64,000 nucleotides of DNA from Alphaproteobacteria bacterium (GTDB lineage: Bacteria > Pseudomonadota > Alphaproteobacteria > UBA6615): assembly GCA_009691025.1 (NCBI GenBank), contig SHWB01000002.1, positions 72,300 to 136,299 of the forward strand, written 5' to 3'. The position numbers and the translations under genes were made by a program. The notes under the pieces were generated by a model. It saw nothing but the letters and a program-made list of their open reading frames with translations, searched no databases and was not told the origin of the DNA. Below are positions 13,985 through 58,411 of this stretch, piece after piece (position 1 is the first letter of the stretch; each line of letters begins with the position of its first letter).

Positions 13985-16589
13985 ATGATGCGCGATGCCA
14001 CGAATCTTGCCCGCGCTGCCGAGGCAGGTGTCGCGCTGGCCGGGGTTGCGTGGTTTGCCGGCTTCGCCATCCTGATTGTTGTCTCGCCCGGCGGGGCCGG
14101 CCTGGCGCCGTCATAGGCCGGGGCGCTGGCCGCCGGGCTGCTGGTGCCGCCCGCGCTGGCCGGGATTCTCGGCTGGTGGCTGCTGACGCGCCGGTGGACG
14201 GATCGCGCGCTGGCCGACCCCGAACGCCATGTCGCGGCGCTGAGCCGGCCGCAGCGCGCCGTCGAGACGGCCCTTGCCACTCTCGGCGACCGCCTTGCGG
14301 TGGGATCGGGCCGGCTCGACGAGGAGGTCGTCAACGCGCACGCGCTGCTCGAAGGGCTGGCCGACCGGCTGGCACAGGAAGCGGAGCGGCTGGCCGGTCT
14401 TGCGGACGAGTCCGTGCGGCGCTCCGCGACCGGCAGCGAGGCTCTGCGCAGCCAGGCCGAGGCGCTGGCTGCAACAGCGTCGCGGATCGCCGGCCGCCTC
14501 GACGAGGTGCGCGCCACGACGGGCTCGCACGCGGCCGCCGCACTGCTCCAGGCCAAGCAGGCGGCAGAGAATGCGCGCCGGCGCCTCGTCGCGGTCGCCG
14601 AATCCTTCGATGCCGTGGGCAAGCGCGCCGCCGCCGCCGCCGAGGGCGCGGTCGCGGCCTTCGCGTTGGCGCGCGAGGCTTTTGCCGGCGAGACCAGAAG
14701 AAACGGCGAGTAGGCGGCGTCGACACGCCGCGAACTGGAGCGCGCGGCCGGCGAATTGGGGGGGTGGCGTCGCCGCATTGAAGGATGCGAGCGCTGCGGC
14801 GGTCGCCGAACTGGCGGCGGCGCGGTGCTGTTTCGATGACGAGGCCGCCGGACTCGGCAAGGACGGCGCGGCTGCTTTCGCCAAGGCGGGGCTGGAGGCC
14901 CTCGAGGCGCTCGAACGGAACCAGCGCGAGACGCGGGTGCGTCTGACGACCGCCGGCAACGACAGTGTCCCGGCATTGCGCGAGGCCGGCTAGCAGGCGG
15001 CGGCGGCACTGGCGCGTGTCGACGAAGGGCTGGGTCGACAGCTCGCCACGCTGACCACCGAGGCGCCGCGCACCGTGCGCGCGGCTACGCCGACTGCACT
15101 CGGCGCCATGCAGAAAGTGCAGGAACAGCTCGGCGACCGGCTGCGCGATCTCGGGGCCGGCGGTGCCAGAGACGTGCGCGAATCCGGCGGCGTAGTGCTC
15201 GGCTCCGTCGACGAGGCGTGCGCGGCGCTGGCGCGGCATGTCGAGTTGCTGCGTGGCGATGCGGCCGGCGCGGTGCGCCTCGCCGCCGACAATGCGACGG
15301 CCGCGATGAGATAGGTCGAGGCCAGCCTGCGCCGCCATCTCGCCGCCATGCGCGCGAGATTTCCGCAGACGGCGCGCGAGGCCGCCTCCATCGCCACCGC
15401 CTCTCTGGGCGAGGCGAGCTCGCAAATGCGCGTGGAGGTCTAGGCGAGCGGCATCGCCGGCGTCGAGGCGGTGCGCAACACCGCCGCCGCCGCGCTGGAG
15501 GCGATGCGCAAGGCCCACGACGAGATCCGCCGCGAAACCGAGCTTGTCAACCTCGCCGTTGCCGGTGCCGACGAGCAGGGCCGCGCCGTCGGCGCCATGC
15601 TCGGCGGCCAGGTGGCGACGATGAAGGCCGCCGCAGGTGCTGTCTCGGGCGAGCTGTCGCAGGTGCGCCAGATGGTGCAGGGCGAGACGCGGGCTATGTT
15701 GGCGGAGAGCCGCGAGGCCAGCGACGCTATCGCCCGCGCCCGCGAGGCGCTGGCTGAGCAGCGTCGCGAACTGGAGGAGGAGCTCGCCGCGGCTCGCGAA
15801 CTGGGTTCGGAGACGGGCCGTGAACTGGGTGCGCAGAACGAGCGCCTCGTCGCCGCCATCGAGGGCGCGGATGCCCGCGGGCACGACCTCGAAGCGACGC
15901 TCGGCGCGCGCTCCGACGCGGTCGCCGGTGTCGCTGGCTCAACCGCCGCGCGCGCGCAGGAAGTGATGGCGACGATCGAAGGGCAGGTCTCGACGATGTC
16001 GGACACCGCCGAACGGCTCGACCGCCGCGTCGGCGACCTGCGCGAAACGCTGCGCGGCCAGTTGGGCGTGCTGATGTCGACGACAGACTATGTCTCCGGC
16101 CGCGTCGACAGTATCTTCGGCTCCTTCCGCGCGCAGCAGCAGGCGCTCCTGGGTGTCGTCGAGGAGGCCGAACGCAAGGCGGGCGAGCTGCGTGTTGCGC
16201 AGCTTTCCGATGCGCGCGGCGTGCTGCTGCACATGGTCAACCGCGTACTCGATTCTCTGGGCTCGCTCGGCACCGACCTCGGCCGCATGCTCGAAGGCGA
16301 TTTGCCGGACCGTGTCTGGCGGCGCTACCTGGAGGGCGACCGCACGGTGGCGCTGCGGCGGCTGGCGCGCGGCCTGCGCGACCGCGACGCCATCGCCCGA
16401 GTGCGCCGCTCCTTCGAGGATGATCCCGAGTTCCGCCACCTCGCCAGCCGCCACCTCGCCGAGTTCGAGCACCTGCTGACCCAGGCCGGCGACACCGACC
16501 CGGAGGACCTAGTCAGTGCTTCCCTGCTCACTGCCGATGTTGGCAAGGCCTATCTGCTGCCCTCGAGGGCGACGGGGCGATTGAGCTGA
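13985..16589 (+). pseudogene. membrane-anchored long coiled-coil protein, interrupted by 5 in-frame TAG and one frame change
   Basis: From ATG 13985: two TM helices (VALAGVAWFAGFAILIV; ILGWWLL), then about 800 Ala/Glu/Arg-rich coiled-coil codons ending DLPDRVWRRYLEGDRTVALRRLARGL..FEHLLTQ. Continuity requires reading through TAG at 14114, 14711, 14991, 15312 and 15441, plus a frame change in the G7 run 14758-14764. Confidence 0.7.
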
Positions 16590-16606
16590 CGGCGCGGCGT
16601 CCCCGT

Positions 16607-16712
16607 CCTTCGACAGGCTCAGGACGAGGACGGCTGGAAAGTGCGACGCGGCCGGCGGCCCCCCCCCCGCGTGCCGGGTACGCCCCCTCGATCATCCTGA
16701 GCCTGTCGAAGG
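16607..16712. repeat. REP-like element: 18-bp perfect inverted repeat enclosing a C10 tract
   Basis: CCTTCGACAGGCTCAGGA at 16607-16624 and its exact reverse complement at 16695-16712. C10 homopolymer at 16659-16668. Confidence 0.7.
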
Positions 16713-16770
16713 ATGAGGATGCCGTCGGCTGGTGGTGGCTCCACGGGGCAGGCGGGACTATCTTTCCCCC

Positions 16771-17646
16771 ATGGCCCAGGCCGCGCGGCGCCTGCCGGAG
16801 AACGCCACCGGCGACTTTTATGTCGACGAGACCTGCATCTATTGCGGCTCCTGCCGCTGGATCGCGCCGGTCTCGTTCGACCTGGCCGGCGAACGCTCCT
16901 ATGCGAAGGCGCAACCGCGCGGCGAGGCCGAGGCGCGGCGGGCGGAGAGGGCGCTGGTCGCCTGCCCGACGGCATCGATCGGCACCGCGGGCAAGCACAA
17001 CCTCGCCGCCGCGCGCGCCGCCTTTCCTGCTCGCATGGACGGCGAGGTCTATCACTGCGGCTGGCACGCGGAAGCGAGCTTCGGCGCCGCGTCGTGTCTG
17101 GTGCGGAGGCCCGACGGCAACATCCTTGTCGACTCGCCGCGCTGTGCTGGAAGGCTGGTGCGTGCGCTCGAAGACATGGGCGGGGTGCGCTGGATGTTCC
17201 TGTCCCACCGCGACGACGTCGCCGACCATGCACGCTTCGCCGCGCATTTCGGCGCCACCCGCATCCTGCATGCCGACGACGTGAACCACGGCACGCGCGC
17301 CGTCGAATGTCAGGTCGAGGGACGCGAGCCGGCGGTGCTCGCGCCGGGTGCGACGATGATCCCGGTACCGGGCCATACGCGCGGCTCGATGGCCATGCTG
17401 GTCGACGATACCTTACTGTTCACCGGAGACCATCTCTCCTGGTCGCCGGAGGACAGTGCCCTCGTCGCCTGGCGCGGCGTCTGCTGGTACGACTGGCGCG
17501 AGCAGACGCGCTCGATGGCACGGCTTGCGGCGCGGCGCTTCGAATGGGTACTTCCCGGCCATGGCACGCCGGGACGTTTGCCGGCCGCGGCCATGGCTCG
17601 GGCGATGGAGAGTCGGTTGGGACGCATGCGGGCGGAGGGCGTCTGA
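16771..17646 (+). CDS. MBL-fold metallo-hydrolase with N-terminal ferredoxin-like Cys cluster
   Basis: Start at ATG 16771 ([11 protein letters not shown]). [12 protein letters not shown] Cys motif, then [12 protein letters not shown] and [11 protein letters not shown]-type motifs. Its stop overlaps the meaB start (TGATG). Confidence 0.65.
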
Positions 17647-19127: not shown

Positions 19128-20087
19128 TCACTCAACGATTTCGAACATTACCAGCAGGGTGCGCAGTGTTGGCGCGAAATTGTCGTCGCTGACGAGGTAG
19201 ACGAGGCTCTGGCCACGCGGCCCACGGCGCACTGCGACGCCCTCGAAATTGTTCGAGATATAGGGCGGCTCCAGCCGCGCCAGCTCGGTACCGGCGATCG
19301 GCGCGCCGCAGCGCAGCGTGCGCGCCTCGACGCGCGACAGGCGGCTGGCGAGACCGCCGAGGTCGAGCGCCGTTCCAACACCAGCAGGTCGCCATCGGGC
19401 AGGGCGGCGGCGCCCACCGTCGCGTAGTACCGTGTCCGGGTCCAGGACATCGGCGTCCAGTTCTGGCCGTCGCCGAGCCAAGCGTAACTCATTTGCGCGG
19501 CCGCCCGCAGGCCTTCGGCGAAGGCGACCATTCGGCCATCGGGCAGGAAAGCGACCGCCTCGATTCCTTCATTGGCCGGCGCGGCCTCGATGCCGGGCGG
19601 CGGCGGCACGAGCGCGGGAGTGCGGGCGAATGGCGGCTCGCCCGGCGGGTAGCGCAGGAGGCGGTGTCGCTGCTCGAAGGACACGACGTACGAGCCGTCG
19701 GCCAGCTGCGTCAGGCCCTCCGCATCGGCGTTGACGCCCGACAGGGCCTTGCCGTCCGGCCCCATGAGCGAGCCCTCGTCGGCAAGTTTGGCGCCGGCGA
19801 GGCTGCCCTTCTCATCGTAGTCGAGGCGCAGACGGAACCAGCGGCCGCGATCCGAGAGGACCATCGCCTCGCTGCCATCCGCCTTGACTTCCAGCGCCGA
19901 CAAGCCACGGAATCGGCCGTCGGCGTCGGGAAAATCCAGTGCGATGCCGCCATGCCACAGCAGGGCGCCAGATCCTTGTCTGGTTGGTGCGCTGGGGGTG
20001 CAGGAGCACGGCCTCGCTGGCGCAGGCCGGGAGGGCGGCGAGCGGCAGCATGGCGAACAGGCAGAGCAGGCGGCGGCAGAGGCGCAT
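19128..20087 (-). pseudogene. secreted esterase-like-activity-of-phytase family protein, at least 2 frame changes
   Basis: Signal peptide MRLCRRLLCLFAMLPLAALPACAS (start 20087), then LDFPDADGRFRGLSALEVKADG...RYYATVGAAALPDGDLLVLERR in a second frame, and LDLGGLASRLSRVEA...YISNNFEGVAV..LVYLVSDDNF in a third. Junctions near 19985 and 19375. Confidence 0.65.
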
Positions 20088-20216: not shown

Positions 20217-20990
20217 ATGCTGCAGCGACGTGACGTACTCAAGGCCATGGCCGCCGTTCCCGCCGCGGGCCTGCCGCTGGCCGTGGTGCTGGCCAATCCG
20301 GAACTGGCGCGCGCCCAGGCGGCAACGCTGGAAACCGTCACCATAACCGTCGGCGGCAAGTTGGTGATCGGTGCTCTGGCAAGCCGGCGAAGGCTCCGGC
20401 CGGCACGGTTCTGGCGGTCCACGAATGGTGGGGCCCCAACGACCAGATGAAGGCTTGGTCGGCCGACATGGCGGCTCAGGGCTATCTCGTGCTCGCCTGC
20501 GACCTGATGGACGGCCCGCCGGCGGCGACGCCGGACGAAGCGCGGCGCCCTGCTCGGCAAGGTGCCGAACGACCAGCGCACGGCGATCGTCGCCGCCTGG
20601 GCCGACTGGCTGAGGAAGCATCCGCAGGGCAATGGCAAGGTAGCCACGGCCGGCTTCTGCTTCGGCGGCGCGTGGTCGCTCATCGCCTCGCTCGCCCGCC
20701 CGGTCGATGCGACGGTGATCTACTATGGCAACGTCGCCAAGACGGCCGATGATCTGAAGCCACTGGCCGGCCCGGTGCTCGGCCATTTCGCGCCGCAGGA
20801 CCAGAACATCAACAAGGCGATGGTCGACGGCTTTACTGCCGCCATGCAGGCCGCCGGCAAGAGCCTCGAGGCGCGCCGGTACGACGCCAAGCACGGCTTT
20901 GCCAATCCGACCGCGGCGCTCTACGACGCCGAGGACACCAAGCTGGCGCAGGAACGCACCCTGGCATTCCTGAAGAAGCATCTGGGGTAG
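20217..20990 (+). pseudogene. dienelactone hydrolase family protein, 2 frame changes
   Basis: Tat-like N-terminus MLQRRDVLKAMAAVPAAGL; GKPAKAPAGTVLAVHEWWGPNDQMKAWSADMAAQGYLVLACDL in a second frame; GKVATAGFCFGGAWSL...HGFANP in a third. Junctions near 20378 and 20540. Confidence 0.75.
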
Positions 20991-20999
20991 CCGGTCTCT

Positions 21000-21159: not shown

Positions 21160-22313
21160 CTACCCCATCGCATGTCGCGCGACGAAACCATCGTCGATGG
21201 TGAGGCCGAGGCCGGGGCGGTCGGGCACGTCGATCAGCCCGTCCGTCACGGGGAAACCCTCGATCGCCAGGTCGTGCAGCATTGGGTTGGCGCCGAGCGA
21301 ATATTCTAGGATGAAGCCGGCGGGCGACGCCGCGGCCACCGCGAGGCCGGCGGCGAAGGCCGGCGCGCCGCCCCAAAGATGCGGCGCCTGACGAAGATTG
21401 TAGGCGCTGGCCAATGCCGCGATGCGCATCGCCTCGGTGATGCCGCCGCAAATGGCGAGGCTGGGCTGCAGGATGTCGACCGCGCGCAGTTCGCACAGTT
21501 CGCGGAAACCATGGCGGGTGAATTCGCTCTCGCCGGCGGCGATGGCCGTGTCGGCGGCGGCGCGCACCTCGGCCATGCCTCGCTTATCGTCGGCCGAGAC
21601 CGGCTCCTCGAACCACATAGGCGCGCTGTCCGCGGCGAGGGCGGCGAAGCGCTTGGCCTCGGCAACGGTCCAGGTGCCGTGCGCGTCGCAGGCGATGCCG
21701 ATATCGGGGCCGAGCGCCGCGCGGGCGGCGGCGAGGCGGCGGGCGAGCCGTCCATCTCGCCGACGCGCATCTTCACCACACCGAAGCCGCCGCGGTCGAC
21801 ATAGCCCTGCAACTGCTCGCCGATGGTCTCGGCCGGCGCCCGGCCGCCCGAGGCATAGGCCGGCAGGCGCGATGCCCGGCGGCCGCCGAGCAGGCGCCAC
21901 ACCGGATCGTCCAGCGCCTTGCCCTTGATGTCCCACATCGCCATGTCGATGGCGCCGATGGCGGAGACATGCGCGCCGCGGCGGTTGAGCACGGGAAAAC
22001 CGTGGACGCGCGACAGTGCGTAATGCGCGCGGGTGCCGCTGTAGAGCATCTCCCAGAGGCGCGCCGGATCGCGCGTATCCTCGCCTATCAGCAGCGGCGA
22101 GAACTCCTCATTCACTATCACCGTCAGCCCGGCATTGTTGGCGGCGCTGGCGACGGCGGACTTGCCCTCGCCCCAGACGGTGAAGCCGGCATCGGTGTCG
22201 ATGCGCACGATGGTGGCATCGAAGGAGTCGAACGTGCCGTAGTCGCTGGTGTGCCGGCGCTCGGCCGGGATCGGCACATGCACCCAGAAGCCGCGGACTG
22301 CGGTGATCTTCAC
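21160..22313 (-). pseudogene. mandelate racemase/muconate lactonizing enzyme (enolase superfamily), 1 frame change
   Basis: GTG 22313: MKITAVRGFWVHVPIP...AIDMAMWDIKGKAL...GVVKMRVGE, then the other frame DGRLARRLAAARAALGPDIGIACDAHGTW...MWFEEPV...AAGESE. Junction near 21750. Confidence 0.8.
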
Positions 22314-23308
22314 TAGGCGAGGCCCAGGCGCGCGCGCCGCGTGACATGCGCCTCGCGGCTGGCGGAATTGACGAAGAATTGCGGCCAGCCGCCGGCGATG
22401 ACGGTGGCAACGGCCTCGGCAGAGATGCGCCCGGTCTCCTCGAAGGCCTGCACGGTGATGCCGGCCACATGCGGCGAGAAGCGCACAGAATCGAAACGCC
22501 GGTAGGGGTGGTCGGCGGCGAGGGGCTGCACGTAGAGCACGTCGAGCGCGGCACCGCCGACGCGCCCCGCCTCCAGAGCCGCTACCAGATCGTCCTCGAC
22601 GATGACCGGACCGCGCGCGGCGTTGACGACGACCACGCCAGGCTTCGCCAGAGCGAGGCGGCGCGCGTTGACGAGGCCGCGCGTCTCATCCGACAGCGGG
22701 CAGGTCAGCGCGATATAGTTGCTCTCGGCGAACAGTCGGTCGAGATCGGCCGCCTCTATGCCGTCGGTCAGCGGGCGGCTGCGCTGCGTGCCGAGCACGC
22801 GCATGCCGAAGGCGCGGCCGAGTGCCGCGACGCGTCTGCCGATATCGCCGACGCCGACGATGCCGAGCGTCTGGCCGTCGAGCCCTCGCCGGTCCTGCGC
22901 GAAAGCGCGCACCGGCTGCCATTATCCGGCGCGCACGCGGCGGTCTAGCGTGTCGAGGCGACGGGCGAAGGCGAGCATCTGCGCCAGCACGTACTCGGCG
23001 ACGGTGCCGGCGTTCACGCCGGGGGCATTGGCCACAACTATGCCGTACTCCGTGGCGCTGTCGACGGGTATGAGGTCGACGCCGGCGCCCTGGCGCGCGA
23101 CGTCGGGCATGTGCGGCGTGTGCTCGGACAGGTCGGGCGGCAATTGCGCGCCCACGATCAGGCCGGCGGCGTCGGCGGCCTCGCGGCGCAGCGTGTCGAA
23201 ATCGGTGCTGGTCGCCACCACCGCGTCGAGGTCGGCGGCGTCGAGCACGCGCGTGGCTTCGGCGCCCTAAGGCGGGGTCAGCAGCACCTTGGGACGGCTG
23301 CCGGACAT
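22313..23308 (-). pseudogene. D-isomer-specific 2-hydroxyacid dehydrogenase with in-frame TAG and TAA
   Basis: ATG at 23308: MSGSRPKVLLTPP*GAEATRVLDAADLD...VVANAPGVNAGTVAEY..RRVRAG*WQP...LGIVGVGDIGRRVA (NAD fold). TAG at 23267-23269, TAA at 22922-22924, no frame change. Confidence 0.8.
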
Positions 23309-25410: not shown

Positions 25411-26613
25411 ATGAACGACAAGGTTCCGGGCCTGCTCGACGGCATCCGCGTCGTCGAGATGAGCCACATCATGGCCGCACCGACCGGCGGCATGATGCTC
25501 GCCGACATGGGGGCCGACGTGATCAAGGTCGAGCGCCTGCCTCAGGGCGACGACATCCGACGCTCGGCGCCGATGGTCGATGGCGAGTCAGCGCCCTTCA
25601 CGATGATGAACCGCAACAAGCGCGGCGTGGCACTCGACATGCGCCAGGCGGGCGGGCGATACGCGCTGCGCCGGCTGGTGCTCGGCGGCGATGTGTTCAT
25701 CGAGAATTATCGCAAGGGCGCGATGGAACATTACGGCCTCGGTGAGGCCGAGATGCGAGCCGCCAATCCGAAGCTGGTCTACTGCTCGGTGTCCGGCTTC
25801 GGCCAGACCGGACCATATGCCGGGCGCGGTGGCTTCGACCTCATCACCCAGGGCATGAGCGGCCTGATGTCAATCACCGGCGAGGGCGAGGGGCGCCCGC
25901 CGGTGAAGGTCGGAGCGCCGGTGACGGACATCACCGCCGGCATCCTCGCCGCGCTAGGCATATGCGGCGCGTTGGTGCGGCGCGGCGTGACGGGCAGGGG
26001 GCAATATCTCGACACCTCGTTGCTCGAGGCCGGCATCACCCATACCTACTGGCAGACGGCAATCTACCGCGCGTCGGGCGAGGTCACCCGCGCGCTCGGC
26101 TCGGCGCATCCGCTGATGGCGCCCTACCAGGCTTTTCCCACCAAGGACGGCTGGATCAATCTCGGTGCCGCCAACCAAAGCACCTGGGAGAAATTCGTCG
26201 TTGCGCTGGGCGCGCCCGAGTTGGGTGCCGACCCTCGCTTCAACGCCAATGCCGGGCGCTTGGCCAATCGCGGGGCGCTGACCTACGAACTGACCCGCCG
26301 TTTCGCCACCGCCACTACCGCTGCATGGCTCGACCGGCTCGAGGCCGCCGGCGTGCCGGCCGGCCCGGTGTACGACGTCGCCCAGATGGCGGCCGACCCG
26401 CAAGTGCAGGCGCGTGGCATGATCGCCGAGGTGTCGACGGCCATGGGCACGCCGGTCAGCGTCATCGGCCATGCGGTAAAATACTCGGACAACCCGGCCA
26501 CCATCCGGCGCGGCGCCCCGCGCCTCGGCGAGCATACGCGCGAGGTTCTGGAGGAATACGGCTTCTCCGGTGCCGAGATCGACGCGCTGGTCGCATCGGG
26601 AGCGGCGGCCTGA
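25411..26613 (+). CDS. family III CoA-transferase (CaiB/BaiF type)
   Basis: 400 aa; GIRVVEMSHIMAAPTGGMMLADMGADVIKVE..., SGFGQTGPY, ITQGMSGLM. Confidence 0.85.
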   Translation: MNDKVPGLLDGIRVVEMSHIMAAPTGGMMLADMGADVIKVERLPQGDDIRRSAPMVDGESAPFTMMNRNKRGVALDMRQAGGRYALRRLVLGGDVFIENYRKGAMEHYGLGEAEMRAANPKLVYCSVSGFGQTGPYAGRGGFDLITQGMSGLMSITGEGEGRPPVKVGAPVTDITAGILAALGICGALVRRGVTGRGQYLDTSLLEAGITHTYWQTAIYRASGEVTRALGSAHPLMAPYQAFPTKDGWINLGAANQSTWEKFVVALGAPELGADPRFNANAGRLANRGALTYELTRRFATATTAAWLDRLEAAGVPAGPVYDVAQMAADPQVQARGMIAEVSTAMGTPVSVIGHAVKYSDNPATIRRGAPRLGEHTREVLEEYGFSGAEIDALVASGAAA

Positions 26614-26629: not shown

Positions 26630-28327
26630 GTGATACGCTTCCGCCGGCTCGTCGACGCTGCGACGGAACGCGACCGCTCACAGCTCGATAGTGTACGCGC
26701 GATGTTAGCGACGGCCTTTACGGCCGAGCGGCGGGCTATCGACCGGCTACTCGCCGGACTGGGAGAGCGCGAGGGCGCCTACGAGACGGTGGTGCTGATC
26801 GCCGAGAACGAGCGCGGCAGCGTGCTCGGATACTCGGTGACTATGTATTTCCGCGCCCCGCGCTTCGGCCACCTCGTCTATTTTGCCAGCGACCAGCAGC
26901 GACTGGCATCGGCGGGGCGCTGTACGAGGCGCTGCGCGAGTACCTGGTCCGCAAGGGCGCGGCTGGATTGTTTCTCGATGCCGGCCCCGACGACCCGGTC
27001 AAGCTCGACGATCCGTCGAGCTTGCCGCTCAACCGGCAGCGCATGGTGTTCTACGAACGCTACGGGGCGCGGCCGATCGAGGGCACGCTCTACGACGTTA
27101 TTGGCAACCCCGCCAATGACGTCGTCCGCGTTACTCTCCTGTTCGACCCGCTCTATCGCCATACCCCGCTGCGACGTGCCTAGGTGCGTGCCTTTCTGCG
27201 TCGCATGTATCTCGCCCAGTACGGGCAGGGTACGGCCGACCCCTATGTGCGCGAAATGGTCTCGTAGTTCCGCGACGATCCGGTTCGCATCCGGCCGCCA
27301 CGGCCGCGCGCTCCGAGGCCGGCGCCGACGCGGAGCTGGCTGCGGCCGCTGAAGCTCGTCGTTGCCGAGAACTACCGCATCCACCATCTTCGCGAGAAGG
27401 GCTATGTTGAGCGTCCCGTACGCATCGATGCCGTCCTGCGCGGCCTCGTCGACGTGCCGCACGAACGCGTTCCGACTCGCTGCTTCAAGGACTACATACT
27501 GCGCGAAATCCACGACCCCGACCTCGCCTACTATCTGCAGGCGATGTTGGAGAATCTGGCGCCGAGCGCGTTGCTTTATCCTGAGGTCTTTCCGGTGCGC
27601 CGGCCGGACCGGCGGCCGCTCGAGCTGGAGGCACGCGCCGGTTATTTATGCATCGACACCTTCACGCCATTGACGCACAACGTCTGGCGCGCCGCTCGCG
27701 CCGCCGTGGGCACGGCGCTGACCGGCGCGGAGTTGGTGCTGGAGGGCAACCGCCCCGTCTACGCGCTGACACGGCCGCCCGGACATTATGCCGAGCGCGG
27801 TGTCTATGGCGGCTTCTGTTACCTCAACAACGCCGCCGCCGCGGCGCACCGCCTGTCGTGCCATGGCCGCGTCAGCGTGCTCGACATCGACTACCACCAC
27901 GGCAACGGCACGCAGGATATCTTCTGGCACAGAGGCGATGTGCAGACACTGTCGATCCATGGCTCGCCCAGCCTCGCCTACCCGCATTTTCCGGCGAGGC
28001 GACGAGCGCGGTGAGATTGACGGGCGCGGCGCCAATTGCAATTTTCCCCTCCGCCGCGGCGTCGACGACACGCGCTATCTCGAAGTCCTTGAGGAGGCGC
28101 TGGGGCTGGTGCGACGCTTCCGCCCGGCCTTACTCGTCGTTGCGCTGGGCTTCGATACCATGCGCGGCGATCCGACCGGCTCGTTCGTCGTCACTACCCG
28201 CGGCCTGCGGGCCATCGGCGTGCGCTTGGGGCGGATGGGGTTGCCGACTCTGCTGGTCCAGTAGGGCGGCTACTCGCCGCGCAATCTGCGCGTCGGTGCC
28301 TAGGCGCAGTTTGAGGGGCTGGGATAG
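26630..28327 (+). pseudogene. GNAT acetyltransferase - histone deacetylase-family (HDAC/AcuC-like) fusion, 4 in-frame TAG plus at least 2 frame changes
   Basis: GTG 26630 VIRFRRL...; GNAT core TGIGGALYEALREYL; HDAC part RPPGHYAERG..GGFCYLNNAA, LDIDYHHGNGTQDIF, NCNFPL, LLVQ*GGY. TAG at 27181, 27265, 28262 and 28301. Frame changes near 26885-26895 and 27987-28005. The expected PGHHA is PGHYA. Confidence 0.75.
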
Positions 28328-28349
28328 ACCTGGTATTGAAGTGGTTCGT

Positions 28350-38586: not shown

Positions 38587-38588
38587 CC

Positions 38589-42905: not shown

Positions 42906-42927
42906 GCGGCGCGGGGGTAAGGAAGCC

Positions 42928-44094: not shown

Positions 44095-44221
44095 GATGGC
44101 GTCTCTCCGGATACCTGCAGTCGCAGTCTGGCTACACTAGCGCAGGGGCCCGGGTCGCGTATCGGCCGGGCCGGCGACGGTATACTGGCCGATGGCCAGC
44201 GACGGGAGGGGCATCGCTACC

Positions 44222-45020
44222 ATGGTCCATTGGGTGAAATTCCGGCGCGGCACGGCGGACGGCTTCGGGACGCTCGCCGGCGCGGCGATTGCGGTGCATG
44301 CCGGCGACATGTTCGGCGCCGCGCAAGCGACCGGCGAGACGCTGGCGCTGGGCGCGGTTGCGCTGCTGCCGCCCTGCCTGCCGGGGCAGCTGGTAGCGCT
44401 GTGGAACAATTCTCTCGCGCAGGCCAAAAAAAGGGCCTAGCCCAACCGAAGGAACCGCTGTTCTTCCTCAAGTCCCGACCAGCTACCTGCCGCATGGCGG
44501 CGTCATCCGGCGGCCCTCCGGCTATGACCGGCGCGCGATCTACGAGGCCGAACTCGGCATCGTCATCGGCCGCGCCTGCAAGGAGGCGGACGAGTCGACG
44601 GCGGCGGCGGCTATCTTCGGCTACACCTGCGCCAACGACGTCACGGCGCTCGCCATCCTCGACGAGGATCCGTCGTTTCCCCAATGGGCGCGCGCCAAGA
44701 TCTTCGACACCTTCGGCGCCTTTGGGGTGGCGATCGCTACGGACATCGATGTCGCTGGCGCCTCGACCCGCGCCATGCTCAACGGCCACTAACGGCAGAA
44801 CAATCCGGTGATCGACCTGTTCTTCCAGCCGGCCGCGCTGGCCAGCCGCTTGTCGCACGCGATGACATTGCTGCCGGGCGACATCATCTCCTGCGGCACC
44901 GGGCCCGGCGCGCTTCCGATGCGCGACGGCGTCACCATTGAGGTGGTGATCGGCGGCAGCGGCACGCTGGCGAATACCTACGCGGAGTATGGTCCGTCGT
45001 CAGGCGGCGCGCGCGCCTAG
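44222..45020 (+). pseudogene. fumarylacetoacetate hydrolase (FAH) family protein, 2 frame changes plus in-frame TAA
   Basis: MVHWVKFRRG..GFGTL...LVALWNNSLAQAKK | GLAQPKEPLFFLKS | YLPHGGVIRRP...YEAELGIVIGRAC...IFGYTCANDVTA...MLNGH*RQNNPVIDLFF...MTLLPGDIISCGT. Junctions in the A7 run 44426-44432 and near 44475. TAA 44790-44792. Confidence 0.8.
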
Positions 45021-46082
45021 CCAGCCGGCCATCCAGTCGGCCGATTGCGGCCGGTACAGATGCGGCAGGTTGTTGACGACGTGATTGCCGCCGGGAACGA
45101 TGTTCAGCGTCACCGGGCCATTGGCCGCAGCGGCCAGGCGCCGCTGTTCGTCCGGGGGCGTCACGCGGTCGAGTTCGCCGCCGACGATGTAAAGCGGACA
45201 GGCGATGCGTTCTGCGACACCGGCGAGATTGATCCGGCGCGCGACCTCGTAGCCCGCCTCGGGCGTGGTGCAGTGGGCGCGCGCCATAAACACTTTTTTG
45301 GTGCCCGATTCGTGCCAGTGACCGGCATAGTAGAACGGGCCGCAGATGGCGACGCAGGCCCTGATGCGGGCCTCGAACGCGGCCGCGCGCGGTGCGTAAT
45401 AACCGCCTAAGCTGACGCCCCACAGGCCAATGCGTGCCGCGTCTAGATCGGTGCGCGTCTCTACCCAATCGATCACCGCCGCGACGGCGACCTCATAGTC
45501 TGGCCGGATCGGCCGGTCGTACTCGCCCTTGCCATGGCCGGGGCTGTCGAAGGCAATCGTGGCTACACCCCGGGCCAGGAAAGGCGCCTCGTTGGTCGAC
45601 ATCTCCTCATTCGCCGAATCCATGCCCATGCACATGACGAGGACGGGCGGACGCACCACACCCCGCGGCTTGCGCAGGATGCTGTACAGATATGCGCCGT
45701 CGTAAGTGATGGCGACGCGCTCGCTAGGCGGGTCGAGACAGGGCGAAGCGAGGTGGCGGCATTCAATGGCCTTCGCGTGCACGGCACGCAGGCGCGCCCT
45801 GTCCTAGACGAAGACTAATTTGGCGAAATGGTAGACGACGCCCGCCGTCTGCAGGTGCTCGCCGGCGCTGATGGTGTGCCAGGCGGCAAGTGCCTCGTGC
45901 CCCAGCGCCTCTTGCCGCGCCGCTAGTTCGGCCCAGACGTCGATCCAGCCGTCCCAGGTCCCGATGCGTCCGCTCGCCTCATGCCAGTCGGCCAGAGGCA
46001 CCCCGTTGATCACGAAGCGCGGCGCCCAGCGCTCGGTGACGAGAGCGACTCTTTCGTCCCTTGCCATCGGCTTCCCCGCCAT
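45000..46082 (-). pseudogene. alpha/beta hydrolase with N-terminal helical domain, split by one in-frame TAG
   Basis: ...VVYHFAKLVFV*DRARLRAVHAKAIECRHLASPCLDPPSERVAI...VLVMCMGMDSANEE...GLWGVSLGGYYA. TAG 45804-45806, single frame. Confidence 0.7.
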
Positions 46083-46190: not shown

Positions 46191-46880
46191 ATGTGTCGTG
46201 CCGGCGGCAACATGGCCTTGTCTGCCTGCGCCGGAGGCAGGATGACGGACATCGCCTATCTCGCGCGCATGCGACGAAAAAGATGTCTACGAAAGCGGCG
46301 GTCAGCCTGCCCGTTCCCGCGCCCCGCCAACGATCCCCGCGAGGGCATGCCGCTTGCTTCGGTCGGTGCGGGCCATTCCCGGCGCGCCGGGCGTAACGCC
46401 ATCCGTCATCGTTCATCCATACCCGCGAATGCCATCGTCCCGACCTGTCGGACTGCCCGCCGGCCAAGCGGCAGCGCGGACCCGTCCCTGCGTATTGGCT
46501 ATCCCGGGCCGATGGGCCGCCTGCTGGTGGCCGGCGAGAAGGGCGCGGAGATCATCCCGGCGCTGGCGCCGCTGCCCGGCGAGACGGTCATCGACAAGCC
46601 GGGCAAGGGGGCCTTCAATGCAACCGATTTGGACGCCGTCCTGCGCGGACTTTACGTCAGCCACCTCGCCATCGGCGGCGTGACGACGGAAGTCTGCGTG
46701 CAGACGACGATGCGCGAGGCCAACGACCGGGGCTACGATTGCCTGATGGTCGAGGACTGCACCGAGAGCTATTTACCCGAGTTCAAGCAGGCGACCCTGG
46801 CGATGGTGCGGGCCCAGGGCGGCATCGTCGGCTTGACCGCGCCGTCGGACGCGCTGATCGCGGCGCTCGACCGGCCGTGA
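46191..46880 (+). pseudogene. isochorismatase/cysteine-hydrolase family protein, several frame changes in the 5' half
   Basis: Clean 3' half: [51 protein letters not shown]....[33 protein letters not shown]. Upstream pieces (..[22 protein letters not shown]) lie in other frames, with junctions near 46410 and 46478. The 5' limit is uncertain. Confidence 0.65.
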
Positions 46881-53468: not shown

Positions 53469-54409
53469 AACGCCCTGCGAAAGCGCGCCCGGCCTCGCGA
53501 ACCGCTGCCGGCGGCCGCAAGGCGGCTCCCCGCGCCGTCGATCTGTCGATCGCCGGCCGGTTCGACCGTGCCGCCGAGGATGTCGGCAACATCGTCGCGC
53601 TGGATCATGTCAACCTGCTGGTTGACGGCCAGCGGACGGCGACGATGTGCTACCTCGTGGCCATGGGATTCACGCGCGATCCCTATCTGATGCCGGGCGT
53701 CGACCTCATGTGGGTCAATCTCGGCCGCAGCCAGTTCCATCTGCCGAACGGCGAGCCGCAAATCCTGCGCGGCCGCATCGGTATCGTCGTGCCAGACTGT
53801 GCGGCGCTGCTGGCGCGGCTGGAGCGCGTGCGTCCGCGCCTTGCCTGCACGCGTTTCGTCTGGCGCGAGTATACCGGCCATGTAGACGTCACCTGCCCCT
53901 GGGGCAATACCTTCCGCTGCCATGCGCCGGACGCGCAGTACGGTCCGATGGCGCTCGGCATGCCATATGTCGAGTTCGACGTGCCGGCCGGCACCGCCGA
54001 CGGCATCGCCCGTTTCTACCGCGACATCATCGGCGCGCCGGCGACGGTGGCGGCCGGGTGTTCCGGACGCGTTGCGACCGTCGCCTCCGGCATCGGCCAG
54101 TCGCTGCGCTTTCGCGAGACGAAGGCGCCGCTGCCGGCCTATGACGGCCACCATGTGCAGGTCTATGCCGCGGATTTTTCCGGCCCGCATCGCCGCCTGC
54201 TCGAGCGCGGCCTCGTCACCGAGGAAAGCGACCGGCATCAGTACCGCTTCGTGTCGCTGGCCGGCCCGGCCGACGGGCGCGCGCTCTACGAGGCCGAGCA
54301 CGAGGTGCGCAGCATGCGCCACCCGCTTTACGCCCGCCCGCTCGCCAACCGTGATACGACGCAGAGCAACATGGCCTACAGGCAGGGCCACGACGCCCTC
54401 CCGGTTTAG
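53465..54409 (+). CDS. VOC (glyoxalase/dioxygenase)-fold-like hypothetical protein
   Basis: ATG 53465 in ATGA overlap with the C45 gene. LDHVNLLV....TATMCYLVAMGFTRDP...MWVNLGRSQFHL and HHVQVYAADF suggest two beta-alpha-beta-beta-beta modules. Family not firmly recognised. Confidence 0.45.
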   Translation: MKRPAKARPASRTAAGGRKAAPRAVDLSIAGRFDRAAEDVGNIVALDHVNLLVDGQRTATMCYLVAMGFTRDPYLMPGVDLMWVNLGRSQFHLPNGEPQILRGRIGIVVPDCAALLARLERVRPRLACTRFVWREYTGHVDVTCPWGNTFRCHAPDAQYGPMALGMPYVEFDVPAGTADGIARFYRDIIGAPATVAAGCSGRVATVASGIGQSLRFRETKAPLPAYDGHHVQVYAADFSGPHRRLLERGLVTEESDRHQYRFVSLAGPADGRALYEAEHEVRSMRHPLYARPLANRDTTQSNMAYRQGHDALPV

Positions 54410-54418
54410 GCCGGGAGG

Positions 54419-55579
54419 CTAGCGCGCCGGCTGCTCGCGCACGAAATCCGGGCCGATCTGGGCCAGAGACGGGCAACCCATCTGCCCCATGTTGAGGTCG
54501 ATCTCGCGGCGCAGGATTTCGATGGCCTTCTTCGCCCCGGCGAGCCCGCCGGCCGACACGCCATAGACGGCGGCGCGGCCGATGAAGGCGAATTTTGCGC
54601 CGAGCGCCAGCGCCACCAGCACGTCCGTGCCGCGCCTGATGCCGCTGTCGATCATCACCGTGGCGCGACCGCCGACGGCGGCGAGCACGCCCGGCAGAGC
54701 GTCGAGCGTCGCCGGCGCACGGTCGAGCTGGCGGGCGCCGTGGTTCGACACGATGATTCCCTCGCAGCCCAGCTCGACGGCGCGGCGCGCATCGTCGGGA
54801 TGCAGGATGCCCTTGATGATCAGCGGCTTCTTCCACAGGCGGCGATAGGCTTCGATGTCGCGCCAGGTGTGGCCCGGCGCCGGCACCAGGGTGTTGACGT
54901 AGGCGACAACGACGCGCGCATTGGCGCCGGGCGGCGCATAGGGCACCCAGTTGCCCAGCGTTGGCAGGCCGCCATGCCTGAGGAAATCCAGCGCCCAGGC
55001 CGGGTGCAGCATGGCGTCGAGCAGCACCGACGGCGTGATCTTCAGGCTGGAGGAGAAGCCGGTGCGGATATTGCGCTCGCGGCGCGGCCGCACGGGCACG
55101 TCGACGGTGACGACGAGCGCGGAGAGACCGGCATCGGCCGAGCGGCGCACGAAGTTCTCGTTGATGGCGCGGTCGCTGGCCGCATAGATCTGGTACCAGG
55201 TATGCGCCGGCGCGACGCGCGCGGCTTCTTCCAGCGTGGCGTTGCTCGCGCCCGACATGATGAACGGGATGTCGGCGTCCGCCGCCGCCCCGGCCAGAGC
55301 GAGGTCGGCGCCACCGCGGAAGAAGCCTGTGGTGCCGGTCGGCGCCAGGCCGAAGGGGCTGGCGTAGCGGCGGCCGAACAACGTCGTCGTCTGGTTGCGC
55401 TTCGTCACGTCGACGAGGTAGCGCGGCATGATGCACCAGCGCTGGAACGCCGCCTCGTTGCGCTCCAGCCCGCGCTCGTCCTCCACGCCACCCTCGATGA
55501 AATCGAAGGCCAGGCGCGGCAGGCGCCGCTTCGCCATGCGGTGGAGGTCTTCGATGTTGACCGCGCTTTCGATGCCCAT
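54419..55579 (-). CDS. FMN-dependent alpha-hydroxy acid dehydrogenase/oxidase (LldD/glycolate oxidase family)
   Basis: 386 aa; IIVSNHGARQLD signature, ..DSGIRRGTDV.. Intact. Confidence 0.85.
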   Translation of the reverse strand: MGIESAVNIEDLHRMAKRRLPRLAFDFIEGGVEDERGLERNEAAFQRWCIMPRYLVDVTKRNQTTTLFGRRYASPFGLAPTGTTGFFRGGADLALAGAAADADIPFIMSGASNATLEEAARVAPAHTWYQIYAASDRAINENFVRRSADAGLSALVVTVDVPVRPRRERNIRTGFSSSLKITPSVLLDAMLHPAWALDFLRHGGLPTLGNWVPYAPPGANARVVVAYVNTLVPAPGHTWRDIEAYRRLWKKPLIIKGILHPDDARRAVELGCEGIIVSNHGARQLDRAPATLDALPGVLAAVGGRATVMIDSGIRRGTDVLVALALGAKFAFIGRAAVYGVSAGGLAGAKKAIEILRREIDLNMGQMGCPSLAQIGPDFVREQPAR

Positions 55580-55739
55580 ACCGGTCGCTTCCGCTCGTTG
55601 ATTCGCCGGCTTGCCCCCGCCGGCGGGCGCATCCTAGCCCCGCCGCCCCCGGCCGTCGCGGCGAAAGGACGCGCTCCCGGCTTGTCCCGCGCCCCCTTTC
55701 CGCCGTTTCCATGGGCGGCGTGCGACGCGGGAGGACCAC

Positions 55740-56573
55740 ATGGTGGGACATTTGTTGGACGACCAGGCGGAGCGCTACCGGCGCGACGGCTTTCTGTTTC
55801 CCGTGCGGGTGCTGACGCGCGCCGAGGCCGAGGGCTACAAGGTGAAGCTCGAAGCCTATGAGCGGTCCGCCGGCGGGCCGATCAGCGGCAACCGCCGCCA
55901 CAAGGTGCATCTGCTGTTCACCTGGGCGGCCGAGCTGGTGCGCAACTCGGCGATCCTCGATGCCGTCGAATCCGTGCTGGGTCCCGACCTCATGGTCTAG
56001 GGCACGGACTTCTTCATCAAGGAGCCGCGCGATCCTGGCTTCGTCTCGTGGCACCAGGACTCGACCTACTGGGGCCTCGACCCAGCGGACATCGTGACGG
56101 CGTGGGTCGCCTTCAGCGACGCGCCGGTCGAGAGAGGCGCGATGAAGTTCATGCCCGGCTCGCACCTCATCGACCAGCTGCCGCATGTCGATACCTTACA
56201 CGAGCACAACCTCCTGACTCGCGGGCAGGAGATCGCTGTCGAGGTTGACGAGTCGAAGGCCGTCGACGTGACGCTGAACGCCGAGGAAATGTCGCTGCAC
56301 CATGTCCGCCTGGTGCACGGCTCGAAGCCCAACACCACGGCCAACCGCCGCATCGGCTTCGCCATCCGCTACATGCCGACCTATGTGCGCCCGGTGAAGA
56401 TCAAGGACGGCTCCATGCTGGTGCGCGGCACCGACCGCCACGGGCATTTCGTGCCGGAAGTGTCGCCGATGGCCGATCTCGACGATGCCGCCATCGCCGC
56501 CCACACCAATTCTATCCAGCGGCAGATCGCAGCGCTCTACGAGGGGACCGACCGCACCGAGATGCGGCCCTAG
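55740..56573 (+). pseudogene. phytanoyl-CoA dioxygenase (PhyH) family Fe(II)/2OG oxygenase split by one in-frame TAG
   Basis: MVGHLLDDQAERYRRDGFLFPVRVL...VLGPDLMV*GTDFFIKEPRD.GFVSWHQDSTYWGL...AWVAFSDA..ERGAMKF.PGSH...HHVRLVHGSKPN. TAG 55998-56000, same frame on both sides. Confidence 0.8.
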
Positions 56574-56709
56574 GCGAAGGCGGGTATCCTTGATACTCGT
56601 TTGTGCCTGCCAGCAAATGGACTAGCGTAACCGGAACGCTCGGCGGCCATATTCCCCGGCACCGCCGCTGTATCCTCCGCCGGGCGCGCACGAGGGTGGC
56701 TCCGTGATC

Positions 56710-57071
56710 GACCCCCACCTGCCGCCAGTTGGGACTAGGTCAAGTTCACGCATAAAACTGCTCAGACTGCCGCCCAGTTTCAGTTCCCTGCTCTGGGTCT
56801 TGACCGCCTCGGTGGTCACCCAAGCCAGCAGCAACCTTGGTACAGACCCGTAGGGCAAGCCCATGGTGCTTGGGGAGAGGATGGTCAGGCTGTAGTTGAC
56901 GTTCTTTCTGGTGAACTCATTGCCTACAACTTTGCGGTGGGGAAGGGTGGCTTGCACCATAGCCCATGCCATGAACCCCAAGGCATCAGCGTCCTGCGCC
57001 TTCTCATCCTCGACGGCAAGCGCCCTGTTGATCAGCAGGTCTACGTTCTTGTTGTTTAAATTTGATGCCAT
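56710..57071 (-). pseudogene. repA: plasmid RepA (RepA_C family) replication initiator, N-terminal ~120 codons only
   Basis: ATG 57071 MASNLNNKNVDLLINRALAVEDEK...LGFMAWAMVQATLPHRK...YSLTILSPSTMGLPYGSVPRLLLAWVTTEAVKTQSRELKLGGSLSSFMRELDLVPTGGRWGSIT. Family similarity ends where the sequence turns GC-rich near 56710. Confidence 0.6.
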
Positions 57072-57104
57072 CTTGCGCTTTTGGCTATGTGGGTTTTGAC
57101 TTAT

Positions 57105-57448
57105 TGTCACATAGTATTATAAAAACGATATTTGCATACTTATGTGACTATGCACACATATATTTTCATAGATCTACACAAGCCGTTGGGTGTACTGAAA
57201 CTACTCTGCCAAATACCTTGATAGTTGGCGCAGGCATGGTCTGTGACCACCTTTAAAAGCATTGCGTGACACCACCGCATTGCCCTCAGGGGTCTTTGCC
57301 CCTGTGGACTTAGCCCAAGGCTTCCATTGCCTGATGGCTTGGGACTTCTTGGCTTTGCGCTCAGGTGTCCAAGTCATTGGTGTTCCAACTTGGCGGCTTC
57401 AGCGCAAACAACGGTGCGGTAACTGTGACCTAAGTCACATATTGTGAC
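57105..57448. repeat. iteron/operator-like field of TGTGAC/GTCACA hexamers
   Basis: GTCACA at 57106 and 57434; TGTGAC at 57143, 57242, 57424 and 57443; GTGACA at 57266. Perfect palindrome TGTGACCTAAGTCACA at 57424-57439. The 8-mer GTCACATA occurs 3 times (57106-57113, rc of 57141-57148, 57434-57441). Confidence 0.6.
57201..57377 (-). CDS. 58-aa basic hypothetical protein of the plasmid remnant
   Basis: Below the ORF-track size cut-off. MTWTPERKAKKSQAIRQWKPWAKSTGAKTPEGNAVVSRNAFKGGHRPCLRQLSRYLAE. ATGA overlap with the upstream 69-aa ORF. Overlies part of the repeat field. Confidence 0.4.
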   Translation of the reverse strand: MTWTPERKAKKSQAIRQWKPWAKSTGAKTPEGNAVVSRNAFKGGHRPCLRQLSRYLAE

Positions 57449-57583
57449 CATAAGCGCACCACTTGGTGTGAAGCTAAAGCCAGATTGGGCGTGGGCTTCT
57501 TTGATGGTTAGTTGTATTGCAATACCTGACAAGGCAAGAGCAATCACTGTTAAAATGAACTTTGTGTACAAATCGGTTTTCAA
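57374..57583 (-). CDS. 69-aa signal-peptide/TM protein of the plasmid remnant
   Basis: MKTDLYTKFILTVIALALSGIAIQLTIKEAHAQ... followed by a short Cys-containing soluble part. AT-rich codon usage like the repA fragment. Confidence 0.4.
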   Translation of the reverse strand: MKTDLYTKFILTVIALALSGIAIQLTIKEAHAQSGFSFTPSGALMVTICDLGHSYRTVVCAEAAKLEHQ

Positions 57584-57675
57584 GGGGCATCTCCTTGGTT
57601 AAACAGCCACTTTATCCAATAGTATATTTGGCGCAAGTAGGGAAATTTTATCCGATGATTGCATAGATATGCAAG

Positions 57676-58377
57676 ATGACGCCGCACCTTTCGGTCATCT
57701 GCAAGGGCTGCTGGCAGCAGTTGCACTTGACGATCCCCCTGCGCGGCCGGGCATCGGTGCCATTCCGCCTCGTTGGTGTCCGGACCAGCCGCATGAATCC
57801 CAACACCTGCACGGTCTGCGAGATGATGTTCACGCGGGGCATGAAGGCCACCAAGGTCACCATCGACGCGAGCGTCATGTTCGTCGACCTGCGCTGCTAT
57901 ACCGGCCTGACGCAGTCCCTGTCGCAGGAATCTATGGCGACGCTGCTGGGTACCTTCTATGACGAATTCCCCAGTGCGATCTGGGCGCATGACGGGCTGC
58001 TGAATAAGACCATCGGCGATGCCGTCATGGCGGTGTTCAATTTTCCCATCCGCCATGTCGACCATGCCCACAACGCCGTGCTGGCGGCGCGGGAAATACA
58101 GCAGCGCTGTGTCGACCGCGGGGCGGCGGTGCTGCGTAGCCACGGACTGTCGCGCGCCGCGCTCGGCATCGGCATCGACTACGGCACGGCCAGTTTCGGC
58201 GAGTTCGGCCACTCCCAGCGCGACCTGACGGCCATCGGCACCGTCGTCAACATGGCGGCGCGGGCGCAGGGTGCCTCTGCGGCCGGAGAGATTCTCGTCA
58301 CCCGTGCCGTCTACGACCGCACGCAGCCCGACCTAGCGGCGAGCCGGTCCGGCAGATACAGCCTCAATGGCTTCTAG
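57676..58377 (+). CDS. class III adenylate/guanylate cyclase with N-terminal double CxxC zinc-ribbon; premature TAG 9 codons before the family-typical end
   Basis: VICKGCW...NTCTVCEMMF, then cyclase core VTIDASVMFVDLRCYTGLTQ..., LNKTIGDAVMAVFN, GIGIDYG.ASFGEFG, TAIGTVVNMAARAQ. Reads ..YSLNGF*APVELYAA-TGA (TAG 58375-58377, TGA 58402-58404). Confidence 0.75.
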   Translation: MTPHLSVICKGCWQQLHLTIPLRGRASVPFRLVGVRTSRMNPNTCTVCEMMFTRGMKATKVTIDASVMFVDLRCYTGLTQSLSQESMATLLGTFYDEFPSAIWAHDGLLNKTIGDAVMAVFNFPIRHVDHAHNAVLAAREIQQRCVDRGAAVLRSHGLSRAALGIGIDYGTASFGEFGHSQRDLTAIGTVVNMAARAQGASAAGEILVTRAVYDRTQPDLAASRSGRYSLNGF

Positions 58378-58411
58378 GCGCCAGTCGAGCTCTACGCCGC
58401 CTGAGCCCCGG

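Follow-up and report, generated by a model that had tools for sequence, protein, structure and literature searches.

The 64-kb stretch of DNA analysed here (hereafter the window; contig SHWB01000002.1 of assembly GCA_009691025.1) comes from a metagenome-assembled genome (MAG) of an alphaproteobacterium that has not been cultured, sampled in the deep water of Lake Baikal at 1350 m. About 30% of its genes are broken by premature stop codons, frameshifts and deletions, and nearly all of the premature stops with an orthologous codon in relatives arose by G:C>T:A transversion. We think it probable that mutation of the 8-oxoguanine type has driven or sped up the recent erosion of accessory genes seen in this lineage, with relaxed selection acting alongside. 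The lineage would have, or would recently have had, a raised rate of such mutations, caused either by a defect in the repair of oxidised guanine (GO; mutY or mutM) or by higher oxidative damage. G:C>T:A changes, which turn the abundant GAG and TCG codons into TAG, have produced nearly all of the premature stops, and weakly selected genes, no longer maintained, would erode by nonsense mutations, small insertions or deletions (indels) and deletions, the outcome being an early stage of genome reduction. All results refer to this window.

Broken genes and their intact orthologues

Recounting the genes gave about 47 intact, 20 firmly broken and 2 marginal ones (about 69 genes), the marginal calls being a cyclase that has lost 9 C-terminal residues and a small paralogue at 40561-40854. 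An earlier note on this DNA, made from the letters alone, had put the interrupted genes at about 21 of 62; every gene on its list was checked and the count proved accurate. By a codon-usage frame scan the coding signal runs over stops or jumps frame at many places. Pfam profiles were scanned both on translations that read through in-frame stops and on the separate frames, and the continuity of a family over a stop or into another frame was seen in 17 genes, so that the claim of family-typical sequence rejoined across fragments is borne out. Single domain alignments cross stops in the 2-hydroxyacid dehydrogenase, OtnK (SBD_N/NBD_C), the MoCoBD domains of the CoxL-like protein, FAH, the FrsA-like hydrolase, PhyH, the short-chain dehydrogenase (SDR) and DUF883. 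Successive segments of one family stand in different frames in the phytase-like esterase (2-211 and 239-284), DLH (6-54 and 72-216), MR_MLE (N and C domains), HDAC (2-182 and 187-266), LtnD (NAD_binding_2, then NAD_binding_11) and the SDR (2-56, then 61 onward), and FAH is likewise split by frame into Rv2993c_N and FAA_hydrolase from position 38.

The syntenic DNA of relatives was collected via the TypA cluster and other protein clusters. It comprises two loci of GCA_050246875.1, L082 around typA and L084 around scpA (85-92% nucleotide identity), two loci of the ENA assembly ERZ27265269, L081 and L089, which at 93% nucleotide identity represent the closest relative, the JGI and Logan contigs L085-L088, and a further relative locus, L090. 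For 18 of the broken genes a full-length orthologue lies at the syntenic position in close relatives (85-93% nucleotide identity), intact copies being found in L081, L082, L084, L085, L087, L088, L089 or L090. The catalogue of lesions was built from tblastn and codon-anchored DNA alignments to these relatives; the comparison of broken genes with orthologues, which the earlier note had proposed, placed each lesion at base resolution.

The broken genes are accessory and include genes of sugar-acid and tetronate catabolism, assorted hydrolases and oxidoreductases and some stress proteins, whereas sdhCDAB, scpA, meaB, rpmB, typA and both toxin-antitoxin (TA) modules are intact. Both earlier statements, that the housekeeping genes and TA modules are spared and that decay is concentrated in accessory catabolism, therefore hold, the latter with intact syntenic orthologues in close relatives. 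The density of broken genes is uneven, about 50% in 14-47 kb and only 2-3 of 16 in 48-62 kb.

The origin of the DNA was traced by identity. Ten intact open reading frames (ORFs) of the window are letter-identical to the NCBI proteins MSO80340.1-MSO80393.1 (locus tags EXQ97_), which lie on a contig of 151,868 nucleotides, and positions 53534-55713 are 100% identical to a Logan contig from run SRR8561391, a winter metagenome from 1350 m in Lake Baikal (PRJNA521725; PMC7678222). The material sampled was the cellular fraction of the lake water. The content of guanine plus cytosine (GC) is 66-74% across the window, one low-GC insertion excepted. TypA shows 98% identity to a few MAG or metagenome sequences and its next matches are at or below 80%, the named ones being Iodidimonas and Emcibacter, at 79% the nearest of them, and MAGs of the Sphingomonadales and Rhodospirillales; a TypA search of genome contigs gave, among the matches listed, only relatives of 66-74%. 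Because the next TypA matches reach at most 80% and the named ones lie outside the Rhizobiales, the earlier assignment to a Rhizobiales chromosome is unsupported.

Authenticity of the lesions

The lesions recur in three assemblies. Assembly ERZ1305449, which has other contig breaks (8.8 and 7.3 kb), contains fragment genes identical to those of the NCBI MAG and split by single stop codons (OtnK 101+121+143 amino acids, CoxL 182+192, LtnD 154+105, PhyH 86+159), and Logan assemblies, built directly from the reads of the run, hold exactly the same fragment proteins, in line with the earlier view that assembly errors do not explain the nonsense codons. Many of the lesions are multi-base deletions, for example of 7, 13 and 251 nucleotides (nt). 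In about 34 kb of intact genes there are 0 internal stops, and broken genes carry up to 8 lesions each. Counted at synonymous sites, the net G:C>T:A change is similar for intact genes (+86, 5685 codons) and broken ones (+50, 5097 codons), and non-synonymous G:C>T:A is depleted among the intact genes (Fisher p=9e-7). The lesions are genuine and specific to this lineage, and selection has kept the housekeeping genes free of them; a filter of this kind on the non-synonymous changes of intact genes is something that random read or assembly errors cannot produce.

A sequencing or assembly artefact, be it homopolymer indels, oxidative G>T damage of the library or a chimeric consensus, is accordingly scarcely credible. 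G>T is known as an artefact of library damage, and all of the assemblies possibly come from one sampling campaign, yet the fragments agree in three assemblies, gene truncations stand among the lesions beside the deletions, and the lesions are clustered in some genes; the deep Baikal datasets and their MAGs are moreover Illumina-based (PMC9948471). Homopolymer slips were rejected as the cause of the frameshifts, as most lie outside runs and several are multi-base deletions. The earlier caveat that frame changes in homopolymers could be assembly errors falls for the most part: the G7 run at 14758-14764 is the junction of the 251-nt deletion, and the frameshift of the GNAT gene is a 7-nt deletion at about 26904.

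Still less credible is recoding, by which TAG would be read through or reassigned, the frameshifts programmed and the genes functional. It is true that the majority of premature stops are TAG, but TAG has taken the place of codons for four different amino acids (Glu, Ser, Gln and Trp) and is the normal terminator of 10 of 33 intact genes, and these two facts rule out TAG reassignment or read-through. TAA stops, large deletions and replaced catalytic residues are also present. The window holds 0 tRNA genes, the Rfam and tRNA scans of it having returned no matches. Artefact and recoding are thus effectively excluded.

A lineage-specific excess of G:C>T:A

Premature stops read TAG or TAA, whereas the intact genes end in TGA (23) or TAG (10) and never in TAA. 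Out of 27 premature stops with an orthologous codon, 24 arose by G:C>T:A (GAG>TAG, TCG>TAG, GAA>TAA, TAC>TAA, GGA>TGA) and the other 3 by G:C>A:T transitions (CAG>TAG twice, TGG>TAG once). The share of G:C>T:A expected among stops is 30% from codon usage and the spectrum of the sister lineage (p=3e-10) and 54% from codon usage and the window's own spectrum (p=1e-4).

Substitutions were polarised by three-taxon parsimony in the otn block (sister L088, outgroup L082) and in the typA block (sister L081, outgroup L082). G:C>T:A makes up 67 of 269 window-specific changes (25%) as against 22 of 211 sister-specific ones (10%; Fisher p=4.9e-5). The excess extends to synonymous sites: in broken genes 20 of 108 synonymous changes are G:C>T:A in the window and 4 of 87 in the sister, whereas synonymous G:C>A:T is unchanged (52 and 51). 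In intact genes, a smaller set, the polarised synonymous difference is weak (5/54 against 2/43); in pairwise comparison the intact genes show 107 synonymous G:C>T:A forward against 21 reverse. Net G:C>T:A is positive in 31 of 31 pairwise gene comparisons, and against the closest relative 91 G:C>T:A changes run forward and 20 in reverse, while the transitions come close to balance. A:T>C:G stays low, so that there is no rise of the mutT type, and no rise of transitions of the mismatch-repair type was seen. The G:C>T:A changes favour a G followed by A or C, and G>T showed no clear bias toward a transcription strand. The earlier note had offered a mutator episode among its possible causes, and the lineage-specific excess of G:C>T:A gives this direct support.

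Relaxed selection or drift only, following a niche shift, host restriction or a bottleneck, with an unchanged mutation process whose AT bias shows through, is in our estimate unlikely. It would fit the contrast between broken catabolic or stress genes and intact housekeeping genes, as well as the intact proteins, which carry more unique amino-acid changes than their relatives as weak selection predicts, and the insertion of TA modules and a plasmid remnant beside the deletion of genes. However, an unmasked bias or a loss of GC-biased conversion should lift G:C>A:T no less than G:C>T:A, whereas the synonymous counts given above rise five-fold for G:C>T:A with G:C>A:T level, and the comparison with the closest relative repeats this pattern. 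Because only G:C>T:A rose, drift or relaxed selection alone is insufficient.

The tetranucleotide CTAG occurs 63 times in the window and 6 times in 21.8 kb of L082, and CTAGG/CCTAG 39 times in the window and once in L082. CTAG is in excess because GAG or TCG became TAG after codons ending in C. Deamination of 5-methylcytosine at CCWGG, or a methylation-related miscall, was considered for the stops in CTAGG context and rejected, as the orthologous codons are GAG or TCG and the changes hence transversions.

Timing and selection

On the window branch the ratio of non-synonymous to synonymous substitution rates (dN/dS) is 0.17 for ltnD, 0.26 for otnK and 0.21 for the ferritin gene, 0.6 for the holin-like gene and about 1-1.1 for DUF883, compared with 0.08-0.09 for the intact otnI and typA; the sister branch gives 0-0.17 (0.14-0.17 beside ltnD and otnK). 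Most broken genes thus appear to have been constrained for most of the branch, which points to a recent inactivation. The earlier judgement that the decay looks recent is in keeping with the otn values of only 0.17-0.26. Decay has gone further in the SDR, the coiled-coil gene, GNAT-HDAC, ferritin and coxL than in the other broken genes. TypA (33037-34860) carries 11 lineage-unique amino-acid changes, compared with 0-1 in its nearest relatives, and ScpA (11812-13965) 18, compared with 0, a sign that housekeeping genes, too, may be fixing slightly deleterious changes.

That loss of costly accessory pathways was favoured in a cold, oligotrophic deep lake appears highly improbable to us. Such adaptive inactivation would account for the over-representation of stops relative to missense changes among G:C>T:A (p=0.004) and for the disruption of ltnD and PhyH with almost no excess of missense change. 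On the other side, the genes with many hits (up to 8 lesions) and the partial deletions look like neutral decay that set in once a gene had been hit, ascertainment and sequence context each account for part of the stop excess, and no parallel losses were seen in the relatives.

Quite unlikely, to a lesser degree, is a local decay in which a dispensable or recently acquired segment, for instance a redundant copy or an integrated element, erodes within an ordinary genome. The patchiness, with many lesions in 14-47 kb and few in 48-62 kb, agrees with it, as do the RepA remnant, the TA insertions and the duplicated SDR. Yet the region belongs to the chromosome and keeps synteny with relatives across sdhCDAB-scpA-meaB-rpmB and around typA, the broken genes lie between intact housekeeping genes, and these housekeeping genes share both the G:C>T:A excess and the acceleration of amino-acid change. 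We hold local decay to be unlikely on these grounds, the synteny of a chromosomal segment and the signature that its housekeeping genes share. Megablast of 25 kb of the window against plasmids found nothing close.

Several points weigh against an erosion driven by 8-oxoguanine-type mutation. G:C>T:A is enriched 2.5- to 5-fold and yet amounts to only 25% of the lineage-specific substitutions, and the mutator episode may therefore have been recent or mild. Polarisation covers about 7 kb, the rest being pairwise and assuming that the relatives are near compositional equilibrium. Stops make up 19 of 141 non-synonymous G:C>T:A changes as against 6.9% under neutrality (p=0.004), and a mutator alone leaves this roughly 2-fold stop excess unexplained; it may come from ascertainment, from the preference for G before A or from selection for gene loss. 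Neither mutY nor mutM nor mutT is in the window, and a repair defect is read from the spectrum only. The 64 kb seen are a part of the genome in which decay is patchy, with few lesions in 48-62 kb, and the three assemblies may go back to one sampling campaign, with the same libraries or sister libraries behind them.

The broken genes

The coiled-coil protein gene (13985-16589, + strand) has TAG at 14114, 14711, 14991, 15312 and 15441, a 251-nt deletion at about 14760-14766 and small indels in 13999-14041, measured against the intact gene of 950 amino acids at 12173-15025 of L084. The phytase-like esterase (19128-20087, - strand; 318 amino acids in L084) carries a +1 frameshift at about 19970 and a -1 at about 19366, with PF13449 in two frames, and the dienelactone hydrolase (20217-20990, +; 257 amino acids in L084) a -1 at about 20381 and a +1 at about 20542 that leave 54 codons out of frame. 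The enolase-superfamily gene (MR_MLE; 21160-22313, -; 388 amino acids in L084) has lost 13 nt between 8-nt direct repeats at about 21741. In the D-2-hydroxyacid dehydrogenase gene (22313-23308, -; 332 amino acids in L089 and L084) the lesions are TCG>TAG at 23267-23269, GAG>TAA at 22922-22924 and TCG>TAG in the last codon at 22313-22315. The same type of mutation has brought about ends that are one codon early in this gene and in the intact CoA-transferase (GGA>TGA, 26611-26613).

The GNAT-HDAC fusion (26700-28350, +; intact with 548 amino acids in L089) combines its 7-nt deletion with TAG at 27181 and 27265, -1 shifts at 27990 and 27996 and TAGs in the ancestral frame at 28262, 28301 and 28325. 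An alpha/beta-hydrolase remnant at 29284-29432 (+), a broken gene absent from the list of the earlier note, retains roughly the last 50 codons, among which there is a frameshift; everything else of the gene (283 amino acids, L082 15393-16244) has been deleted. The broken SDR copy (31284-32038, -; 252 amino acids in relatives) has frameshifts at about 31800-31890 and TAG at 31593-31595, and its translation reads with the catalytic Tyr and Lys replaced. The intact SDR at 32187-32945 (-) is its tandem paralogue; both copies (31284-32945, -) align to the single SDR of L082, where a gene of 239 amino acids that is absent from the window lies between typA and the SDR.

The DUF883 (ElaB-like) gene at 35588-35899 (+; 103 amino acids in L081, about 103 in relatives) is interrupted by GAA>TAA at 35600-35602 and GAG>TAG at 35756-35758, and the neighbouring YqjE/holin-3_6-like membrane protein gene (35919-36360, +) by -1 at about 36112, -9 at about 36274 and -1 at about 36307, its orthologues measuring 126 amino acids in L081 and 147 in L082. 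The otnC-like class II aldolase gene (36700-37333, -; 208 amino acids in L082) shows a -1/+1 pair at 36989/36959, a -6, a +1 at 36773 and -1 at 36744 and 36734. The otnK-like four-carbon acid sugar kinase gene (37333-38586, -; 418 amino acids in L082 and L088) contains GAG>TAG at 38281-38283 and TCG>TAG at 37912-37914 and 37384-37386, and the ltnD-like dehydrogenase gene (39385-40291, -; 303 amino acids in L082 and L088) a +1 at about 39897 and TAC>TAA at 39460-39462. The marginal small paralogue (40561-40854, +) lacks about 28 N-terminal codons in frame, residues 28-96 aligning to the 96 amino acids of L082 and L088.

The ferritin-like remnant (41216-41546, +) has GAG>TAG at 41243-41245, a -2 at about 41317 and a truncation at codon 111 of 187, with the junction at about 41540; it covers positions 1-65 of the 142 of its Pfam profile. 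The CoxL-like molybdopterin hydroxylase remnant (41539-42914, +) retains only codons 365-822 of the 822-codon ORF of L090 and carries TAA at 42007-42009, TAG at 42628-42630 and a +2 at about 42801. The junction at about 41540, a deletion or rearrangement, fuses ferritin codon 111 to coxL codon 365, and the MgtC and cytochrome bd oxidase genes that stand downstream of ferritin in L082 and L088 are missing there from the window. As ferritin and cytochrome bd each give protection from oxidative stress, their loss at this place may be linked to the G>T signature.

The gene for the FAH-family hydrolase (44147-45020, +; 283 codons in L090, 283 amino acids) has a frameshift at about 44425-44475 and GAA>TAA at 44790-44792. 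The FrsA-like alpha/beta hydrolase (45003-46082, -) has TAG at 45804-45806 inside its domain, the PF06500 alignment spanning the stop, and a relative covers its C-terminus only. In the isochorismatase-like cysteine hydrolase (46191-46880, +) profile positions 61-172 are in frame and the first 60 or so are not; what we take to be a conserved 12-residue segment lies in another frame with a stop before it, and the N-terminus gave no Pfam match in any frame. The PhyH dioxygenase gene (55740-56573, +; 277 amino acids in L085 and L087) is broken by a single TGG>TAG at 55998-56000.

A weak PF04796 match marks the RepA_C remnant (56622-57110, -), carried by an insertion at 56700-57675 of 975 nt and 51% GC, which lies between PhyH and the cyclase and is absent in L085-L087; this truncated RepA_C-like ORF is the remnant of a mobile element. 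The marginal adenylate/guanylate cyclase gene (57676-58404, +; 246 amino acids in L087) owes the loss of its C-terminal residues to GAG>TAG at 58375-58377 and has an in-frame deletion of 12 nt; judged by its sequence, the cyclase may still work.

In the NCBI records MSO80374.1, a CoxL fragment (42052-42630), and MSO80387.1, the N-terminal PhyH fragment (55740-56000), are each labelled 'hypothetical protein', and other pseudogene fragments have no NCBI protein record.

Insertions and clean deletions

Inside the succinate dehydrogenase operon, between sdhA and sdhB, lies a TA pair (5016-5536, +) of a DUF4258 toxin and an MqsA/YgiT-type zinc-ribbon antitoxin; the spacing of sdhA and sdhB in L084 is 44 nt. 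The intact hipBA module at 9963-11650 (-), with HipA N and C domains and a helix-turn-helix antitoxin, fills an insertion of 1.8 kb between the acyl-CoA dehydrogenase gene and scpA, which are adjacent in L084. Two genes of L084 have left no trace in the window, an ORF of 270 amino acids after sdhB (6352-6365) and a cupin of 176 amino acids (7836-7922), both by clean deletion. No transposase was found among the ORFs of the window that were scanned, the search not being exhaustive.

Relation to known systems

The phenomenon is of a known kind and is unusual for a MAG from the plankton fraction. The early reductive evolution of recently host-restricted bacteria is exemplified by Sodalis glossinidius, Mycobacterium leprae and Burkholderia mallei and, to our knowledge, pseudogene-rich genomes are known almost only from such recently host-restricted pathogens and symbionts, pseudogenes making up as a rule a few percent in free-living bacteria of aquatic habitats. 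The window resembles them in its many recognisable pseudogenes with few lesions each, in the sparing of housekeeping genes, in the deletions beside point lesions and in the faster protein evolution of the surviving genes. It differs from them in that its DNA comes from a filter of deep-lake water with no known host, no expansion of insertion sequences was seen in the window, the GC content is still 68-70% and the pseudogene fraction is known for 64 kb only.

Mutators of the GO system (mutY/mutM) are known as E. coli mutants, as cited in PMC551534. The window is like them in a specific rise of G:C>T:A without a rise of A:T>C:G, at synonymous sites of all genes, and unlike the laboratory mutators in that the rise is 2.5- to 5-fold in fixed substitutions and not near-exclusive, and is known here from the spectrum alone. 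For Prochlorococcus, the closest free-living parallel, Dufresne et al. (2005, PMC551534) connect accelerated evolution and genome reduction with lost repair genes, mutY among them. The Baikal lineage shares with it a planktonic origin, faster protein evolution, an AT-ward push of the guanine-oxidation type and the loss of accessory genes; Prochlorococcus, however, represents an end state in which the genes are gone and few pseudogenes are left, whereas here the pseudogenes are still present, which would be an intermediate state. Free-living marine roseobacters, likewise high-GC aquatic alphaproteobacteria of similar accessory metabolism, have a pseudogene ratio of about 3-5% (bioRxiv 10.1101/2021.01.15.426902), far from the share of about 30% counted in the 64-kb window.

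According to one hypothesis (Marais 2008; Bourguignon 2020; both cited in bioRxiv 10.1101/2021.01.15.426902), genomes shrink under the drive of a raised mutation rate. In this light we put forward a further reading, tentatively and as a possibility: a free-living deep-lake lineage at an intermediate stage of mutation-rate-driven genome reduction, reached through the loss of protection against oxidised guanine. The rise of G>T would then come about through a defect in GO repair or through lost defences against oxidative stress, for which the truncated ferritin and the missing cytochrome bd genes would be candidates, and weakly selected accessory genes would drop below the threshold of their maintenance while still being visible as pseudogenes.

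The fragments deposited as 'hypothetical proteins' are a warning for the annotation of MAGs. The lineage also offers a usable natural system for how genome reduction begins, whether by a mutator, drift or selection, with intact close relatives as controls. Should the further reading of an intermediate stage prove true, it would give natural, direct evidence for the debated hypothesis of mutation-rate-driven genome reduction, the case for which has until now been drawn mostly from end states such as Prochlorococcus.

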